A stretch of DNA of 64,000 nt from an uncultured Candidatus Saccharibacteria bacterium (GCA_964566795.1 CAZMIU010000001.1:150764-214763); one strand, 5' to 3'; positions 24,793 to 52,696 are shown, counted from the first letter of the stretch. Numbers and translations: made by a program. The notes: generated by a model from the sequence alone, not told the origin.

Positions 24793-25134
24793 ATGCAGCC
24801 AAACGAGCTGAATAACTTTGATACGCTTGAGCGCAACATAGACGCATTTAATGCCGCTGTCGGTCAGGGGTTTTGGGATATTGTGTTTGCCCACCCCATG
24901 ACCTACCTCGGGTACGCGTTTGCGCTTGTGGCGGCGATAGGCTTCATCATATTTTTGGCTGGCCTGGGCGCCGGGCTCCCCAAAGTGTTTACCATGGACT
25001 GGCACGACGAGCACCAGGAGCATCACCGCGTGCGCGTGACCTGGGGCTTTTTTATACTCTTGTATGTGTTTATCGTCTGGGAGATAGTGCGCTGGATCCT
25101 GGGCGGTGTGCTCGGATTGTTTGGTGCACAATAA
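24793..25134 (+). CDS. Hypothetical small membrane protein
   Basis: Two hydrophobic helices, divergent from the 23316-24737 gene, followed by the structured element. Confidence 0.45.
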   Translation: MQPNELNNFDTLERNIDAFNAAVGQGFWDIVFAHPMTYLGYAFALVAAIGFIIFLAGLGAGLPKVFTMDWHDEHQEHHRVRVTWGFFILLYVFIVWEIVRWILGGVLGLFGAQ

Positions 25135-25214
25135 AAACCCTTAGGAAAATAGCCTGGCCTGATAGGGCTTCGAGCCCGATACAGGAGATCCGAGGACTTT
25201 TTCCTAAGGGTTTT
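25134..25214. repeat. Structured intergenic element, copy 1: 16-bp perfect closing stem around a conserved ~50-nt core; terminator-like
   Basis: AAAACCCTTAGGAAAA...TTTTCCTAAGGGTTTT encloses a core that is ~80 percent identical to 41968-42028 with compensatory changes in its inner stems. Confidence 0.6.
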
Positions 25215-25222
25215 TATGGAGA

Positions 25223-26278
25223 CTATTTCACAAGCGTGAATGCTCCGTCTTTGCCGCGTTTGAAATATTTCTGGTTCTGGAGGTTGACCACAATCGTGCC
25301 CGGCTTAACATGGCGCTCTTTGAGCACCTCCTTAACTATCTCGTCGCGGGTCATGGGGCCGCTCTTGCGCAGTATGTCGCGGATAACGTCGCGCACGACG
25401 CCAGTGGTGTAGCCCCACTCCTTAAGCGCGTACATGCCGCGGCCCACCAGGACAAAGCGGTCATCCTTAATAAGCTCGTTGTGGGTAGTGGCCACGTGTG
25501 CGGCGCGGTTAAACATCTTCTCAATCAGGCCCGACACCTCGCGGAAGTGGAGCGGAGAGCCGTGCTTTTTAACTGCCAGGTAGGCGTAGTCGCGGATACC
25601 CTTGGTCTTAACGTTTTGGGAATGTGCCTGGCCCCACTCGCCCAGGGGGTTTTTACCTATACCCTTTGAGATTGCAAGCCAGCGGCGCAATACCTCCTCG
25701 TTGCGGTGCTTGTCGTTAAGCGTCTGGAGCTCCTTGAGAAAGCGGTCTATCATCTCGCCCTCCGGGATAAGGTCCTCGTCAGAGAGGCCGGAGTAGAGCG
25801 ACTTGAGCGCTCCCTCCACCTTCTGGGCCAAGTCGGGGTCTACATACCAGCAGCGGTTAACCTCATCATCCTCCTTGCGGAATTTAAACGGGTCTCCCAA
25901 AACAAGCAAAAAATAGATGTGGTTCTGCATCGACTTGTCCTTGGTCATAAAATTGAGCAGGTCGTCCTCGCAGACAATGCCGCCCAGACCGTCGATGATG
26001 CGCTCGAGCTCCTCAAATGCGTCCTGTGCCCCGCCAAACGCCGGCGACTTCTTAAGGGCGCCAAGTGCATGGTTCTCAATCTGGCGAACACGCTCGCGGG
26101 TTATGCCGTAGCGCTTGCCGATGGCCTCCAGCGTTACGCGCTCGGGAGAGTCACCCAGCCCAAAGCGGGCCTCAAGCACGGTGCGGGAGCGCTCTGGGAG
26201 CGAGGCAAGAAGCTTTTTGACAATTGCCTTAGGCTTAAAACCTGTCTTGTCCGCCGTGGAAGTTGATGAGGGTGCCAT
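25223..26278 (-). CDS. Hypothetical DNA-binding protein: N-terminal sigma-70 region-4-like HTH plus C-terminal winged-helix-like domain
   Basis: Residues about 30-80 (TVLEARFGLGDSPERVTLEAIGKRYGITRERVRQIENHALGALKK) are a textbook sigma70_r4 motif, but at the N-terminus. There are no region 2 or 3 motifs. Confidence 0.55.
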   Translation of the reverse strand: MAPSSTSTADKTGFKPKAIVKKLLASLPERSRTVLEARFGLGDSPERVTLEAIGKRYGITRERVRQIENHALGALKKSPAFGGAQDAFEELERIIDGLGGIVCEDDLLNFMTKDKSMQNHIYFLLVLGDPFKFRKEDDEVNRCWYVDPDLAQKVEGALKSLYSGLSDEDLIPEGEMIDRFLKELQTLNDKHRNEEVLRRWLAISKGIGKNPLGEWGQAHSQNVKTKGIRDYAYLAVKKHGSPLHFREVSGLIEKMFNRAAHVATTHNELIKDDRFVLVGRGMYALKEWGYTTGVVRDVIRDILRKSGPMTRDEIVKEVLKERHVKPGTIVVNLQNQKYFKRGKDGAFTLVK

Positions 26279-26340: not shown

Positions 26341-29151
26341 TCAAGCAACCACAAGCGTCACTATTTTGCCCTTAACATAGAGAGCTTTTTGCTCCTGTTT
26401 GCCCTCAAGCCACTTGCCCGCTGCAGTGCGGGCCTGGGCCAAAATCGCCTCCTCCGTATCGCTCAGATTGACAGAAATAGTGGCACGCACCTTGCCGTTA
26501 ACCTGCACAGCAATGGTTGCAGTATCTGCCAGCAGCCTCGACTCATCGTACGCAGGCCACGAGGCACAAGAGACTCCATAGAACTCTGCAAGCTCCGAGG
26601 CCATGTGCGGCGCAAGCGGATGCAAAAGCTGTATAAATGTGGCATACGAGCCCTTTGGTACCCCCGCCTCATCAAGCTCCTTAAGCGCGATCATGAGCGC
26701 CGATATGGCGGTGTTAAACTTGAGAGCCTCGAGGTCCTCTGTCACCTTTTTGATCACAGGGTCCATGACAATGTCCAAGGCGTCTGTTGGCTCGAGCCTC
26801 CAGACTTTGTCTAAAAAGCGGCGGATGCCAAGAATATTTTTGGTGCTCCACGGCTTCATGGTCTCAATCGGGCCCATAAACATCTCATACATACGCAGTG
26901 TGTCTGCGCCGTACTCTTTAACCACATCATCTGGGTTAATAACGTTGCCCTTGGACTTGCTCATCTTGCTGCTATCCTCGGCCAAAATGATGCCCTGGTG
27001 CCTGAGCTTTTTAAACGGCTCGCCAAAGCTTATTACCCCATGCTTTTGGAGTGCTTTAGTAAAGAAGCGCGCGTACAAAAGGTGGAGCACCGTGTGCTCG
27101 GCGCCGCCCATGTAGAGGTCCACAGGCAGCCAGTTTTTGACCGCCTCTTTGCCCGCAAATTCCTTGTCGTTGCGCGGGTCGGCAAAGCGGTAGTAGTACC
27201 ACGAGGAACAGACAAACGTGTCCATGGTATCAATCTCCGGCCGCCAGCCTTTGCCAAAGATGCGCTCGGTGCGCTCCAAGAGCTCCTTGGACTGCCCCAA
27301 GGGCGAGGTCCCCGTGGGCTTAAACTCTACATCGGTGGGCAGCATCCAGGGCAAATGCTCCTCCGGCACCGGGTGTGCGGTACCCTCCGGGTCGTAGACC
27401 ACCGGTATAGGCGCGCCCCAGTAGCGCTGGCGCGAGATAAGCCAGTCGCGAAGGCGGTAGGTTTTGACCATCTTCCCTCCTACTGCCTCGGTAATCTTTT
27501 TCTTGGCCTCCTCGCTCGGCATGCCGCTAAACTCTCCTGAGTTTATTAGCACACCCGGTCCGGTATAAACATCCCTGCCGGTTTGGACTCTCTCCCATAG
27601 CATCCAAAATTCCGCATGCTGCATGTGCACAGACTCTATCTCTTTGGGCGAAAGCCACTCAACATCGTATTGATCACTCTCCTCTACTGTTACGGGCACT
27701 CGAGTGTCATCTACGAGCTCAAATAAAAAGTGCTCTCCGTGTGTTTGCCGGTTTACATCTTTATGCGCCGCGAAGAAAAAGGCTTCTGTCTCCAACAGGC
27801 TGCGGACAAGACGGATATTCGTGTATCCTGTTTCTTCTGCAATCTCGCGCTTGGCGGCCTCAAGCTTGTCCTCGCCTTCCTCTACCCCGCCCGTAACAAA
27901 CGTGCGCCACCCTGTCTTCTTCCACTTGAGCGTCAGATACTTGTCTGCTTTCGGGTCATAGACTATCGCCAGGATCATGTTGCGCCTGGTATTTTCTTTT
28001 CCCCCGCGCGGCGGGTTGGTCTCATCTACAAGACTCGGCATTACAACTCGCACTATCGGAATATTAAATTTTTGGGCAAACTCGTAGTCGCGCTCGTCGT
28101 GCGCGGGTACGGCCATAATGGCGCCGGTGCCGTACGTCGAGAGCACGTAGTCAGCTATGAAAACTGGAATCTCTTCACGGGTTGCAGGGTTAATGGCCTT
28201 GATGCCCTTAAGCTCGACGCCTGTCTTTTCGCGGCCCTCGGCAGAGCGGTCTATGTCTGACTTATCTTTGGCCTCTTTGGCGTATGCCTCCACTTCATCC
28301 CAGTTGGTGATAGAGGTTTTTAGCTCCGTGACCAAACCATGCTCGGGAGCTACCACCATGTAGGTTGCCCCATAGAGCGTGTCGGGGCGGGTGGTAAATA
28401 CGGTAATTTTTTTGTCGCTGTTTGATATATCAAACACTATTTCAGCCCCTTCACTGCGGCCTATCCAGTTGCGCTGGTTAATTTTGGTAGACTCGGGCCA
28501 GTCTATCTGGTCCAGGTCATCATGGAGCGCGTCGGCAAACTCGGTAATCTTAAAAAACCACTGCTCGAGGTCTTTTTGTATAACCTTGGTGCCGCAGCGA
28601 ACGCACACGCCCTTCTCCCCGCTCTCGGACACTGTCTGCTCGTTGGCGAGCACGGTCTGGTCTTTGGGGCACCAGTTGACCTTTGCAAGCCGCTTGTATG
28701 CGAGCCCGTTGTTGTACAAAAAGAGGAAGAACCACTGCGTCCACTTGTAGTACTCGGGGGTGTGCGCGCCTATCTCGCGATCCCAGTCGTAGGACAGCCC
28801 GAGGCTCTTTATCTGGCGGCGAAAGTTGCCGATGGCGCGGCCGGTGGTCTCCTGCGGTGGCACACCGGTCTTTATCGCGTAGTTCTCGGCGGGCAGGCCA
28901 AACGCGTCCCAGCCCATGGGGTGCATAACGCTTAAGCCCTGCATGCGCTTAAACCGGCTATAGATGTCGGTGGCTGTGTAGCCCTCCACGTGGCCCACAT
29001 GCAGGCCATCTCCTGAGGGATATGGAAACATGTCGAGCACGTAGAGCTTTTTTGAAGTATCTCCTGAGTCGGGTGCGGCAAATGCTTTGGTCTGGTCCCA
29101 ATGGTCCTGCCACTTTTTCTCAATCGAGGAGTGGTCGTATTTGCCTTTCAT
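26341..29151 (-). CDS. leuS: Leucyl-tRNA synthetase with an inserted Nudix hydrolase domain
   Basis: HIGH (HVGHVEGY), editing-domain TTRPDTLYGATY and KMSKS motifs. Residues about 385-500 contain the Nudix box GGVEEGEDKLEAAKREIAEETGY (GX5EX7REUXEEXGU). Confidence 0.95.
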   Translation of the reverse strand: MKGKYDHSSIEKKWQDHWDQTKAFAAPDSGDTSKKLYVLDMFPYPSGDGLHVGHVEGYTATDIYSRFKRMQGLSVMHPMGWDAFGLPAENYAIKTGVPPQETTGRAIGNFRRQIKSLGLSYDWDREIGAHTPEYYKWTQWFFLFLYNNGLAYKRLAKVNWCPKDQTVLANEQTVSESGEKGVCVRCGTKVIQKDLEQWFFKITEFADALHDDLDQIDWPESTKINQRNWIGRSEGAEIVFDISNSDKKITVFTTRPDTLYGATYMVVAPEHGLVTELKTSITNWDEVEAYAKEAKDKSDIDRSAEGREKTGVELKGIKAINPATREEIPVFIADYVLSTYGTGAIMAVPAHDERDYEFAQKFNIPIVRVVMPSLVDETNPPRGGKENTRRNMILAIVYDPKADKYLTLKWKKTGWRTFVTGGVEEGEDKLEAAKREIAEETGYTNIRLVRSLLETEAFFFAAHKDVNRQTHGEHFLFELVDDTRVPVTVEESDQYDVEWLSPKEIESVHMQHAEFWMLWERVQTGRDVYTGPGVLINSGEFSGMPSEEAKKKITEAVGGKMVKTYRLRDWLISRQRYWGAPIPVVYDPEGTAHPVPEEHLPWMLPTDVEFKPTGTSPLGQSKELLERTERIFGKGWRPEIDTMDTFVCSSWYYYRFADPRNDKEFAGKEAVKNWLPVDLYMGGAEHTVLHLLYARFFTKALQKHGVISFGEPFKKLRHQGIILAEDSSKMSKSKGNVINPDDVVKEYGADTLRMYEMFMGPIETMKPWSTKNILGIRRFLDKVWRLEPTDALDIVMDPVIKKVTEDLEALKFNTAISALMIALKELDEAGVPKGSYATFIQLLHPLAPHMASELAEFYGVSCASWPAYDESRLLADTATIAVQVNGKVRATISVNLSDTEEAILAQARTAAGKWLEGKQEQKALYVKGKIVTLVVA

Positions 29152-29182
29152 CGTTACTCAAAATACCACACTTTTTTAATAA

Positions 29183-29215
29183 GAAAACCCGGCCAGCTCA
29201 GCTGGCCGGGTTTTC
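29183..29215. terminator. Perfect 10-bp GC hairpin flanked by A4 and T4 (bidirectional terminator)
   Basis: aaaa-cccggccagc-tca-gctggccggg-tttt between the 29225-30154 gene and the leuS start. Confidence 0.6.
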
Positions 29216-29224
29216 TGATGCGTG

Positions 29225-41260: not shown

Positions 41261-41497
41261 TCATGCGGTGAGTTTCCTATAGAGCTCTAACAAAATGCGG
41301 GTTTGTGCCTGGTCTGGTGTTTCTTCTTTCTGCTTTTGCAGTCTCGCGTCGTGCTCAACCAGTTTTTCGTATTCTGCGAGTATCTGCGGGAGGAGATTTT
41401 CGTGGCCGCGGCGCTCGAGAACTTTTTTAAGCCCGGCCAGATGTTCTTTTTTGGCCCCAAGCTGGTATATCCCCTGTGCGTAATCTTTGGCCAACAT
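41261..41497 (-). CDS. atpH: ATP synthase delta (OSCP) subunit, truncated to the N-terminal domain (78 aa)
   Basis: AKDYAQGIYQLGAKKEHLAG... aligns with the delta N-terminus. The ORF is squeezed between atpF (5-nt gap) and atpA (4-nt gap). Confidence 0.55.
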   Translation of the reverse strand: MLAKDYAQGIYQLGAKKEHLAGLKKVLERRGHENLLPQILAEYEKLVEHDARLQKQKEETPDQAQTRILLELYRKLTA

Positions 41498-41502
41498 AGG
41501 TA

Positions 41503-41943
41503 TTACTTCTTTAATGCCTTCTCCATTCCCAAAACAATAAGCTTGGCTACCTCTTCTTTAGACTCAGCGATAGCTTTTGATTTTTCCTCTTTAGCCTGGG
41601 CCTGCGCCTGGGCAACTATAGACTCGGCGCGCTTGCCTGCCTCATCCACTATCTCGCGCTCGCGCGCACTTGCCGCAGCGCGTGCGCGTGCAAGCGCCTC
41701 GTCGGCCTCCTGTGCCGCCTTCTGAAGTACACCGGAGCGCTCGTTCTCAATCTCTTGCCTGGCCTGGCTCGCCGCCTCGGCATCCTCCACGCCCTTGAGC
41801 ACCTTTTGGCGGCGCTCCTCGAGCATTTTCATAACCGGCCCGTACAGGAAGTACCACAACCCGAGCATGAGCAGGCCGAAGTTGATCATGTTGATGAGCA
41901 ACAAGCGCCAGTCTATGCCAAATGTGTGGAGAATTGAGTCCAT
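41503..41943 (-). CDS. atpF: Fo ATP synthase subunit b
   Basis: N-terminal TM helix plus long charged coiled coil. Confidence 0.8.
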   Translation of the reverse strand: MDSILHTFGIDWRLLLINMINFGLLMLGLWYFLYGPVMKMLEERRQKVLKGVEDAEAASQARQEIENERSGVLQKAAQEADEALARARAAASAREREIVDEAGKRAESIVAQAQAQAKEEKSKAIAESKEEVAKLIVLGMEKALKK

Positions 41944-41954
41944 GTGCAGGCGGT

Positions 41955-42040
41955 GGGAAATTTGTTCGGAAAAATAGTCTGGCCCGCAAGGCTCATAGCC
42001 GAGACGGGAGACCCGAGGACTTTTTTCTGGGCAAATTTCC
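41955..42040. repeat. Structured intergenic element, copy 2 (between atpE and atpF): 9-bp closing stem GGAAATTTG/CAAATTTCC around the conserved core
   Basis: Core 41968-42028 is homologous to 25150-25198 with compensatory base changes (CCTG/CAGG to CCCG/CGGG; gggct-tcg-agccc to ggct-cat-agcc). Confidence 0.6.
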
Positions 42041-42047
42041 TAGAGCT

Positions 42048-42284
<237 letters not shown>

Positions 42285-43852: not shown

Positions 43853-43890
43853 AGTCAAACGGGATGTGGTAATTGGTATCGTACGCCCGG
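43853..43890 (+). pseudogene. tRNA-Pro 5'-half-like fragment
   Basis: cgggatgtggtaattggtatcgtacgc matches the first ~30 nt of the downstream tRNA-Pro, then diverges. No foldable 3' half. Confidence 0.3.
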
Positions 43891-43903
43891 TCGGAAACTT
43901 AGT

Positions 43904-43974
43904 CGGGATGTGGTATAATGGTATTACGTACGCTTCGGGTGCGTATAATCCGAGTTCGATTCTCGGCATCCCGA
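43904..43974 (+). tRNA. tRNA-Pro (anticodon CGG)
   Basis: C1:G72, discriminator A73, anticodon loop UUCGGGU, T-loop TTCGATT; 71 nt. Confidence 0.75.
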
Positions 43975-44010
43975 CTAAGTTTCCGACAAAATAAAAGAGG
44001 GTGTGTAGCC

Positions 44011-51355: not shown

Positions 51356-52687
51356 TTACACGAGAAAGTTTTTGCGCATTTTTTTGCGGTTAAAGGTGAT
51401 TGCGAAGCGGTGGGCCTCGGCATTGGCCAGCAAGATGTCGCGCTCCTTGTCTTTAATAACGTTACGGTCCCCTGCTATAGAGCGCGGGCGGTGCTTTTCG
51501 TCCTTAACCACTCCCACAACAGGGATCTGCATGCCACACTCTCTAAGTATTTTTGTGGCGGCGTTTATCTGTGCCTTGTGGCCATCTACCACAATGACCT
51601 TAGGGTACGGCCACTCAGGGTGGCCCAAGCGGCGCGACAACACCTCTTTAAGCGAGCCCGGGTCGTCTCCGCCCTTGGCGTCTTTGATATTGAACTTGCG
51701 ATACTCCATCTTGTTGGGCAGGCCGCCCTCTACAACGGTCATAACACCCACATGCCCCGCACCTGCCAGGTGCGCAATGTCGTACGCCTCGATGCGGCTG
51801 CCCTGCGCGGCATTGGGGCCGCGGTACTCGTCCTTTATAAGAGAGACATCCTGTATGTGGGTAAGGCCAAAGAGTTGTTCTTTGAGCCTGCCCGCCTCCT
51901 CAAAGCGCTCTTCTCTGGCGGCCGCCTTCATCTGCTTTTCTATCGAGCTTACGAGTTGCTTCTTGCGGCCCTGGAACAGCAGCACAATGTGGCGGATTGT
52001 CTTTCTGTACTCAGTTTTACCCACCGCGCCCGAGCACACCCCCGGGCACAGGCCAATAGAGGCATCAAAGCAGGGCTTACCCGAGTTGGGCACGCACGTG
52101 GTGCGGTACGGGAAAATCTTTCTAATGAGCTTCATCGCCAACTGCAATTGCAACCCATGCGGGAATGGACCAAAAATGTGGGCATATTCTGGCGCAGCAA
52201 AGTTCTGCAAAAGGGAGTTGGGGTCGTGTTCATCTCTCCCTTTTGCGGAAGCTTTTTGCGCCAGATCTCTGCCGCGTATTACCAAGACCCGCGGGTAGTC
52301 CTCTTTGGGTATGACTACGTGGTTAAAGCTCTTGTCGTCTTTAAGGTCGGTGTTGTAGTCGGGCCTGTGGGTGCGTATCAATGAGGCCTCCAAAAGCAGG
52401 GCCTCCAACACCGAGTCGGTCTGGCGAAAGTCTATCGTGTGGGCCTTATCGAGCATCTCAACCAAGAGAGGCCCGCGGGTATCCATAAGGTCTTTGGCAA
52501 AGTAGCTGCGCACCCTGTCGCGCAGGCTGGTGGCCTTGCCGATGTAGAGCAGCTTTTTATTTTTACCCAAAAAGAAGTACACCCCGGGTGCATCCGGCAG
52601 CCCCGACGCTTTGGTCGGGATCCCGTCCTCGCCTTGCGAGCGTCGGGACTTCTTCAAGTACCGTTTGTTGAACTGCTCAAGATTCAT
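51356..52687 (-). CDS. uvrC: Excinuclease ABC subunit C, short form (GIY-YIG plus UvrBC-interaction plus RNase-H-like domain; no C-terminal HhH)
   Basis: GIY-YIG motif GVYFFLGKNKKLLYIGKA...RVRSY; 443 aa. Confidence 0.85.
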   Translation of the reverse strand: MNLEQFNKRYLKKSRRSQGEDGIPTKASGLPDAPGVYFFLGKNKKLLYIGKATSLRDRVRSYFAKDLMDTRGPLLVEMLDKAHTIDFRQTDSVLEALLLEASLIRTHRPDYNTDLKDDKSFNHVVIPKEDYPRVLVIRGRDLAQKASAKGRDEHDPNSLLQNFAAPEYAHIFGPFPHGLQLQLAMKLIRKIFPYRTTCVPNSGKPCFDASIGLCPGVCSGAVGKTEYRKTIRHIVLLFQGRKKQLVSSIEKQMKAAAREERFEEAGRLKEQLFGLTHIQDVSLIKDEYRGPNAAQGSRIEAYDIAHLAGAGHVGVMTVVEGGLPNKMEYRKFNIKDAKGGDDPGSLKEVLSRRLGHPEWPYPKVIVVDGHKAQINAATKILRECGMQIPVVGVVKDEKHRPRSIAGDRNVIKDKERDILLANAEAHRFAITFNRKKMRKNFLV

Positions 52688-52696
52688 ATAGGTAGT

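Follow-up and report, generated by a model that had tools for sequence, protein, structure and literature searches.

A hairpin repeat family with an asymmetric bulged core, apparently undescribed and apparently confined to Patescibacteria, situated after stop codons and in frame within genes

The stretch of DNA analysed here (the window) comprises 64,000 nucleotides (nt) of an uncultured Candidatus Saccharibacteria bacterium (GCA_964566795.1, CAZMIU010000001.1:150764-214763) and contains two copies of a bulged hairpin element, which belong to a family of hairpin repeats that is apparently undescribed and apparently confined to the Patescibacteria (Candidate Phyla Radiation, CPR). Copy 1 (25131..25217, plus strand; 87 nt) sits between two convergent genes: a plus-strand gene for a protein of 113 residues without a Pfam match (24793..25134), and a minus-strand gene whose product has a sigma70 region-4 domain (sigma70_r4; 25223..26278), with 5 nt between its stop codon and the hairpin foot. 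Copy 2 (41956..42040, plus strand; 85 nt) sits inside the minus-strand atp operon, in the spacer between atpE, encoding ATP synthase subunit c (42048..42275; stop 7 nt from the hairpin foot), and atpF, encoding subunit b (41503..41943; start 12 nt beyond the copy). An earlier note on this DNA had described a conserved structured element at both places, adjoining the stops of the two minus-strand genes, and had taken it for a functional RNA structure. Both copies are present where they were described and both do adjoin these stops; to this it has to be added that copy 1 also overlaps the stop of the plus-strand gene, and that copy 2 is internal to an operon.

In copy 1 the outer stem is built from two arms of 19 nt that are 100% complementary, the 5' one including the A-tract (ATAAAAACCCTTAGGAAAA; 25131..25149), which overlaps the TAA stop of the 113-residue gene, and the 3' one at 25199-25217, which together with the T-run occupies 25198..25217. 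The 5' core box GCCTGGCC (25152..25159; family consensus GTCTGGCC) pairs with the 3' core box GGAGATCCGAGGAC (25184..25197), from which AGAT and GA bulge on the plus strand; the variable apical domain between them, TG-ATA-GGGCT-TCG-AGCCC-GATA-CA (25160..25183), contains pairs that covary within the subfamily. Copy 2 has the 5' box GTCTGGCC (41977..41984), the apical domain CG-CAA-GGCT-CAT-AGCC-GAGA-CG (41985..42006) and the 3' box GGAGACCCGAGGAC (42007..42020), followed by a T-run at 42021-42026, within outer arms of 19 nt each (41956-41974 and 42022-42040) that are 84% complementary. Both strands of both copies fold with z-scores of -3.2 to -7.6 relative to shuffled sequences. Copy 1 reaches a minimum free energy of -44.6 kcal/mol on the plus strand (z -6.9), and copy 2 one of -40.1 kcal/mol on the plus strand, which is antisense to the operon, as compared to -30.2 kcal/mol on the minus strand.

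The homology of the two copies, as claimed before, is borne out: over about 110 nt the two regions are identical in 77% of the alignment columns, with long invariant blocks, and the window has exactly two occurrences of the 19-nt block GGAGAYCCGAGGACTTTTT, also when three mismatches are tolerated, where 0.01 are expected in shuffled sequence. The compensatory changes are real as well, both CCTG/CAGG versus CCCG/CGGG and those in the apical stem, and covariation extends to a subfamily of ten members: RNAalifold predicts 20 pairs for it, 7 of the 20 with compensatory double changes. The closing stems are longer than the 16 and 9 base pairs that had been noted, with arms of 19 nt in each copy; they look unrelated between the two copies but are conserved within subfamilies. 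A covariance model (R1) scores copy 1, which is itself in the training set, at 53.6 bits and copy 2 at 55.7 bits, and finds no third copy in the window with filters off.

The further copies whose absence would have spoken against the earlier description turn out to be many. A first scan, over one genome per species and with a pattern of only 14 specified bases, returned mostly chance matches; about 20 of the matches are complete elements, all in Patescibacteria, from the Saccharibacteria, the Parcubacteria/Paceibacterota, the Kaiser-, Adler-, Ryan- and Liptonbacteria, and the Minisyncoccia. A stricter bipartite pattern of 21 bases retrieves at least 120 metagenome loci and one predicted viral contig. 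In all, the pattern scans yield at least 145 distinct copies, and the convincing ones are all in Patescibacteria (CPR) genomes or CPR-rich metagenomes. The copy on the predicted viral contig (IMG/VR IMGVR_UViG_3300035183_000564, L256, 4197-4234) is flanked by open reading frames (ORFs) without a family match, except for a weak RusA-like one; it may come from a CPR phage, or the contig may have been misclassified. Rfam at gathering thresholds detects only tRNAs in the window and no family matching either copy, and under permissive settings the two copies obtain only generic matches to long hairpins (miRNA precursors), at 9-22 bits against thresholds of 45-114; full-text literature searches returned no description of such an element in CPR/Patescibacteria.

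All members follow a common plan, which is given here for strand B, the strand that in the window is the plus strand and reads GTCTGGCC...GAGGAC (strand A being its complement): the first arm of a variable outer stem of about 25 base pairs, AAWR, GTCTGGCC, 10-50 nt that form the apical hairpin, GGAGAHCCGAGGAC, YTT, and the outer stem's second arm. Within the core, GTCTGGCC pairs with GG-AGAH-CC-GA-GGAC through GUCU/GGAC, GG/CC and CC/GG, including one U·G pair, and leaves GA and AGAH of the 3' side bulged. The pair just outside the core covaries (A-U in 27 copies, G-C in 16), as do the first pairs of the apical hairpin, whose first two positions form tandem G·A/A·G in about 40% of the copies. 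Copies captured as bystanders with the covariance model do vary, for example by a bulge that reads AGGU, by a 5' box that reads GTCTGACC, and by one subfamily's lack of an apical hairpin. Outside the core, about 24-27 positions are paired in every copy, whether coding or intergenic, which defines the unit as a hairpin of about 75-110 nt. The outer stem is common within subfamilies, as in CCAGACAAGCTTATAAAAAT / core / TTTTTAGAAGATTGTCTGG, which one 194-kb contig contains at several loci and which related genomes contain as well. Two motif readings were discarded: a hammerhead-like reading of copy 1 (CUGAUAG...GAUAC) by eye, as copy 2 and other members do not have the CUGANGA and GAAA cores, and a K-turn reading because the tandem G·A pairs do not adjoin the bulges and GA is absent from the unbulged strand.

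The two strands of the element are not equivalent. Strand B folds better than its complement in 22 of 23 copies, and where outer-stem positions depart from Watson-Crick pairing, G·T is found 145 times on strand B and 53 times on strand A (p = 4e-11). This bias has the same direction throughout, in intergenic copies (103:40), in coding copies with strand A as the sense strand (35:11), and in coding copies with strand B as the sense strand (7:2), while the orientation of intergenic copies relative to the neighboring gene is near random (29:21, p = 0.32). Because both the G·T bias and the orientation are independent of host transcription, the structure under selection is not the one formed by the host mRNA; a single-stranded DNA intermediate would account for it, an RNA of the element's own being less likely. 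Strand B lies on the C-rich strand at 72 of 103 loci (p = 7e-5), and neighboring copies are mostly co-oriented (9 pairs in the same orientation, 3 in opposite ones), which hints at a link with the direction of replication that is not fully separable from gene-strand composition. Mutation bias was considered as the source of the G·T asymmetry and rejected, since a C-to-T bias on the G-rich strand, given the placement on the C-rich strand, would produce the opposite sign.

About a quarter to a third of the copies (~28%) lie in open frames: 46 copies, 37 of them flanked on either side by 100 open codons or more. Strand A is sense in 29 and strand B in 17; all three frames are used, and every intragenic copy found keeps the reading frame open, yielding peptides such as VLGSP..., GPRISS...GQT and NGLA...GDPRT, which are inferred to be translated with the host gene. 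The host proteins are conserved enzymes, among them LigA (NAD-dependent DNA ligase), PolA, UvrA, UvrB, UvrC, RecG and PheT (PheRS beta), as well as TGT (tRNA-guanine transglycosylase), Dus, TsaD, KsgA and class I aminoacyl-tRNA synthetases. DNA repair and replication enzymes make up about 16 of 42 hosts (~38%) but only about 12 of 90 size-matched control ORFs from the same loci (~13%), a difference that is inflated by the repeated sampling of orthologous sites; hosts of the repair type include LigA, PolA, UvrA/B/C, RecG and SMC/RecN-like proteins. In-frame copies are located, for example, at L145 662-698, L070 1090-1146, L161 1092-1127, L069 5275-5308 and L144 1788-1820.

Intergenic copies with an adjacent gene end have a median distance of 32 nt from stop codon to core, which places the stop codon at the foot of the hairpin. 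Their flanking genes are diverse, for example SerRS/FtsQ-like, RecA/EF-P, ABC ATPase/permease, RNase H/ComEC, RecO, UvrD/KsgA, two subunits of ribonucleotide reductase, RecR and DnaB. In the 15 intergenic cases inspected, the flanking ORFs are always different genes, with none split in two, and thus nothing suggests removal at the RNA level; together with the open frames of the intragenic copies, this led to the rejection of an intron-like or excised sequence. A DNA uptake sequence (DUS/USS), which occurs about once per kb, was also rejected, two copies in 64 kb being far too sparse.

One property does separate intergenic from coding copies. Of the intergenic copies, 66 of 94 have a T-run immediately behind the core, matched by an A-tract on the opposite side, as compared to 9 of 37 coding ones (odds ratio 0.14, p = 3e-6), a skew that is expected if variants with a T-run terminate transcription and selection disfavors them within genes or favors them at gene ends. 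The two copies of the window both belong to this class and show the anatomy of intrinsic terminators on both strands, a hairpin of -30 to -45 kcal/mol followed by a U-tract (GAGGAC-TTTTT(T) on the plus strand, CCAGRC-TATTTT on the minus strand). A terminator-like role is thus plausible for both: copy 1 probably acts as a bidirectional terminator for the convergent 113-residue and sigma70_r4 genes, and copy 2 probably as a partial terminator, an attenuator, or a stabiliser of the 3' end after atpE, a role that would suit a complex in which subunit c is required in larger numbers than the other subunits.

Comparison of relatives shows that individual sites are polymorphic. Many other assemblies encode an AtpE identical in every residue to that of the window, and their atpE-atpF spacers differ: those of L005, L007 and L009 measure 34-38 nt and have no insert, those of L003 and L006 contain the same element with other apical and outer stems, and those of L001 and L008 (3229-3356), L002 (3229-3357), L004 (3248-3354) and L010 (2026-2113) contain a quite different hairpin. 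Some of these alternative hairpins also begin AAAAGTCC and finish GGACTTTT. As relatives without any insert exist, copy 2 is dispensable; the spacer itself is a recurrent landing or retention site for hairpins, and in all four lineages that have the element there, strand B is antisense to the operon. The site after recR is filled in L156, while L225 lacks about 88 nt at this position with flanks that are 88-96% identical; the related genome L225 does have a copy at an unrelated locus, with which the L156 copy shares 89% identity over 72 nt.

A second, unrelated hairpin occurs in the window itself, in frame inside uvrC (51359-52696, minus strand). It spans 52188-52265, with arms of 30 nt that are 83% complementary around a centre of 18 nt, and encodes about 26 extra residues (DLAQKASAKGRDEHDPNSLLQNFAAPE) between YPRVLVIRGR and YAHIFGPFPH. 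A 26-nt stretch, its centre with arm bases next to it, is 100% identical to the atpE-atpF insert of L010. Since this hairpin is unrelated to copies 1 and 2 and matches the L010 insert, the genome of the window has at least two families of hairpin repeats.

Within genes the same polymorphism is seen in the zinc-finger loop of LigA: among the 120 closest homologs (P0001-P0120), the loop is short in 30 (10-24 residues) and contains an insert in about 87 (29-61 residues). Among these inserts, 20 are an intact peptide of the A orientation, 5 an intact peptide of the B orientation, 10 are partial, and 52 are degenerate, variant, or from other hairpin families; the inserted peptide tracks the orientation and frame of the element. 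Homologs with an insert often have no precomputed Pfam match to the zinc-binding domain PF03119, which the insert-free proteins of 664-672 residues retain, so that the repeat can mask a domain in annotation. At orthologous sites in LigA, PheT, TGT, UvrC and Dus, the element occupies the same alignment column, sometimes in the opposite orientation. The LigA elements of L217 and L235, arms included, are 82% identical when one is reverse-complemented but 67% identical when compared directly, so that whole elements must have been flipped in place or re-inserted. That the outer stems are an inverted target duplication, or that the core inserted into a pre-existing hairpin, was rejected: both arms are extra relative to the empty sites (LigA, recR), and the arms are shared within subfamilies.

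The sequence signature is that of a dispersed, proliferating DNA repeat, and the family is, with somewhat better than even confidence, a selfish or semi-domesticated hairpin DNA repeat rather than a dedicated regulatory RNA. A non-autonomous, 'selfish' element would have spread to many unrelated sites, much as Rickettsia palindromic elements, REPINs and the pneumococcal SPRITE do, with the single strand reading GTCTGGCC...GAGGAC probably serving as the structured intermediate; copies would survive where they do little harm, either just after stop codons or in frame in permissive loops and linkers, where they would be translated, and members with an A-tract and T-run would probably act as bidirectional terminators or attenuators.

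Several observations weigh against this reading. The conserved part common to the family is central, not terminal as in classical MITEs (miniature transposable elements with inverted repeats), and the 22-nt core is kept across class-level lineages, which is unusual for selfish repeats, although its invariance in the sample is partly a matter of ascertainment, an exact pattern having been used to retrieve the copies. Orthologous sites retain the element even where the flanks have diverged to 70-77% identity, and this persistence could reflect selection in situ for a host function. Neither a target-site duplication nor a target motif was found: flanking direct repeats average 1.79 nt as compared to 1.43 ± 0.11 nt in shuffled pairings, with element boundaries that are imprecise. 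No transposase or partner protein was identified, by analyses of which none was aimed at a RAYT gene or a parent insertion sequence. The placement of strand B on the C-rich strand has the opposite sign to that predicted for IS200/IS605 transposition from the lagging-strand template. Lastly, a simple promoter/terminator scanner calls neither window copy, its stem and loop limits being unsuited to a bulged hairpin of 85 nt.

A more specific proposal, well below even probability, is that the 22-nt asymmetric core, GTCTGGCC with GGAGAHCCGAGGAC and its purine bulges, is the recognition site of an enzyme or binding protein that is specific for single-stranded DNA hairpins and present throughout the Patescibacteria. 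Repeat and protein would be long-lived and vertically inherited, much like REPINs and their RAYTs but able to live in genes, and copies would be kept in situ and flipped, possibly with a host function linked to replication or termination.

Among known repeats, the family belongs to none of the Rickettsia palindromic elements (RPEs), REPINs or SPRITEs, its closest analogues, and is distinguished by its central, conserved and asymmetric core, its phylum-wide spread, a strand-specific pairing independent of transcription, and inversions in place. RPEs are palindromes of about 100-150 base pairs that form a long hairpin, often in frame in housekeeping genes of small, reduced genomes, and their mobilising enzyme is unknown (PMC10969869). 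The elements described here resemble them in being long-hairpin palindromes of small genomes that are found between genes as well as in frame in unrelated housekeeping genes, where they add a peptide (37 copies); they differ in the phylum of their hosts, so that the family would be an analogue rather than a member, in the central core of 8+14 nt with subfamily-specific stems, and in that a single family spans class-level lineages and shows inversions of whole elements at a single site. REPs and REPINs are imperfect palindromes with inverted half-sites that persist over long times at the 3' ends of genes, REPs having been proposed as terminators or mRNA stabilisers (PMC3116915, PMC3733652). With these elements, which depend on the Y1 HUH protein RAYT, the family shares two inverted half-sites with bulges, hairpins of about 70-110 nt, long-term persistence, and the location at gene 3' ends; however, REPs have a GTAG or CGTC end tag where the CPR family is flanked by AAWR (5') and YTT (3'), and are extragenic, whereas about 28% of CPR copies are within ORFs. 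The pneumococcal SPRITE, a terminator-like dispersed repeat that is co-transcribed with neighboring genes (PMC10969869), is similar in being a small dispersed repeat with terminator anatomy. Classical MITEs likewise have many dispersed copies that are present or absent between relatives, but their terminal inverted repeats are conserved and direct target-site duplications flank them. Neither feature was found in the CPR family, whose arms are inverted repeats shared only within subfamilies. Bidirectional intrinsic terminators resemble the window copies as G+C-rich hairpins with an A-tract and T-run, after stops and between convergent genes, but not the family, with its bulged unit of about 85 nt, its core common to hundreds of loci in many genomes, and some copies inside operons and ORFs. 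Integron attC sites, finally, are imperfect palindromes recognised as a folded single strand, with extrahelical bases on one strand, a variable terminal structure, and R and L boxes of the form GTTRRRY. The CPR element is alike in the imperfect palindrome, the extrahelical bases of one strand and the variable terminal structure; it differs in having no such boxes, in that its conserved part is not at the recombination ends, and in that there is no integrase or cassette array nearby.

The main rival to a proliferating repeat is a DNA-level signal of benefit to the host, in which the strand-specific, bulged-core hairpin is bound by a CPR-conserved protein, for example one of replication, recombination or repair, chromosome organisation, or DNA uptake and processing, and selection keeps each copy. 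It draws on the retention of the core, both between deeply separated lineages and where diverged genomes share an orthologous site, on the independence of the G·T asymmetry from host transcription, on an orientation that tracks GC skew (72:31) more than gene direction (29:21), and on the tendency of neighboring copies to share it (9 versus 3); many apical loops, moreover, are mini-hairpins of the GCGNAGC type, which are very stable in single-stranded DNA, and the hosts are rich in DNA-repair enzymes (about 16 of 42, versus about 12 of 90 controls). Yet close relatives do without the element at the same sites, with no visible replacement; many copies at the LigA site are degenerate, two copies per 64 kb is a low density, the enrichment in repair genes is inflated by the orthologous sites sampled repeatedly, and no partner protein is known. 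A host-beneficial signal of this kind is unlikely.

The view of the earlier note, a dedicated cis-acting RNA (a terminator, attenuator or stabiliser of 3' ends) selected in the transcripts of adjacent genes, was right about the conserved core, the covarying inner helices and the variable closing helix, which set the element apart from a chance terminator. Copies located directly after stop codons, stable structures with a core between A-tract and T-run, covarying stems, and the enrichment of the T-run class between genes all agree with it, as does the atpE-atpF spacer of relatives, which repeatedly holds some hairpin and fits a differential expression of subunit c. It does not hold as a description of the 3' regions of the minus-strand genes: the strand that folds better and bears the G·U/G·T pairs is the plus strand, antisense to both sigma70_r4 and atpE, and each of the four lineages with the element in the atp operon has the structured strand antisense to it. 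Across the family, orientation shows next to no preference relative to the host or upstream gene, the transcribed strand does not determine the G·T asymmetry, and more than a quarter of the copies (28%) are in frame within coding sequence, in both orientations; the element is dispensable, with sites filled in some close relatives and empty in others. A dedicated RNA element of this kind is improbable.

An independently transcribed small RNA gene, on the plus strand in the window and with the closing stem and U-run as its own terminator, would explain the more stable fold of the plus strand and the U-run at its end, and the purine-rich bulges and tandem G·A pairs do resemble protein-binding RNA motifs; with no conserved promoter, a variable stem upstream of the core, no promoter-like site next to copy 2, many copies inside ORFs, and no Rfam match, it is very improbable. 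That the two copies are ordinary intrinsic terminators, alike by chance or local gene conversion, agrees with a hairpin and T-run at each gene end but is refuted by the census, with more than 140 further copies of the same core in other genomes, and by a shared 19-mer with a chance expectation of 0.01, and can be put aside as next to impossible.

Other features of the window deserve mention. A near-perfect palindrome of 41 nt with A- and T-tracts (AAAACCCGGCCAGCT A AGCTGGCCGGGTTTT; 29179-29219), just upstream of the start of leucyl-tRNA synthetase, contains CTGGCC/GGCCAG, as the repeat core does, and looks like an ordinary bidirectional terminator. The synthetase (26341-29151, minus strand) has a NUDIX hydrolase domain inserted at residues 393-512 (E = 5e-14), immediately behind the editing domain. 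Between atpF and atpA, the gene at 41261-41497 (minus strand), where atpH (delta) is expected, encodes only 78 residues without a Pfam match, and does so in L001-L010 as well. A tRNA gene (43904-43974) is enclosed in a perfect inverted repeat of 21 nt (43890-43987; GTCGGAAACTTAGTCGGGATG / CATCCCGACTAAGTTTCCGAC), which extends the acceptor stem by about 14 base pairs on each side.

CPR bacteria have tiny, streamlined genomes and are generally not viewed as repeat-rich. The family described here would explain many of the lineage-specific insertions of about 30 residues in their proteins, along with occasional failures of domain models, and would mark likely ends of transcription units. A conserved core with covarying stems after a stop codon mimics a cis-regulatory RNA, and in this case comes from a dispersed DNA repeat. 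Its hundreds of natural variants offer a possible route to the enzyme that moves palindromic repeats, a question that the Rickettsia elements pose as well.

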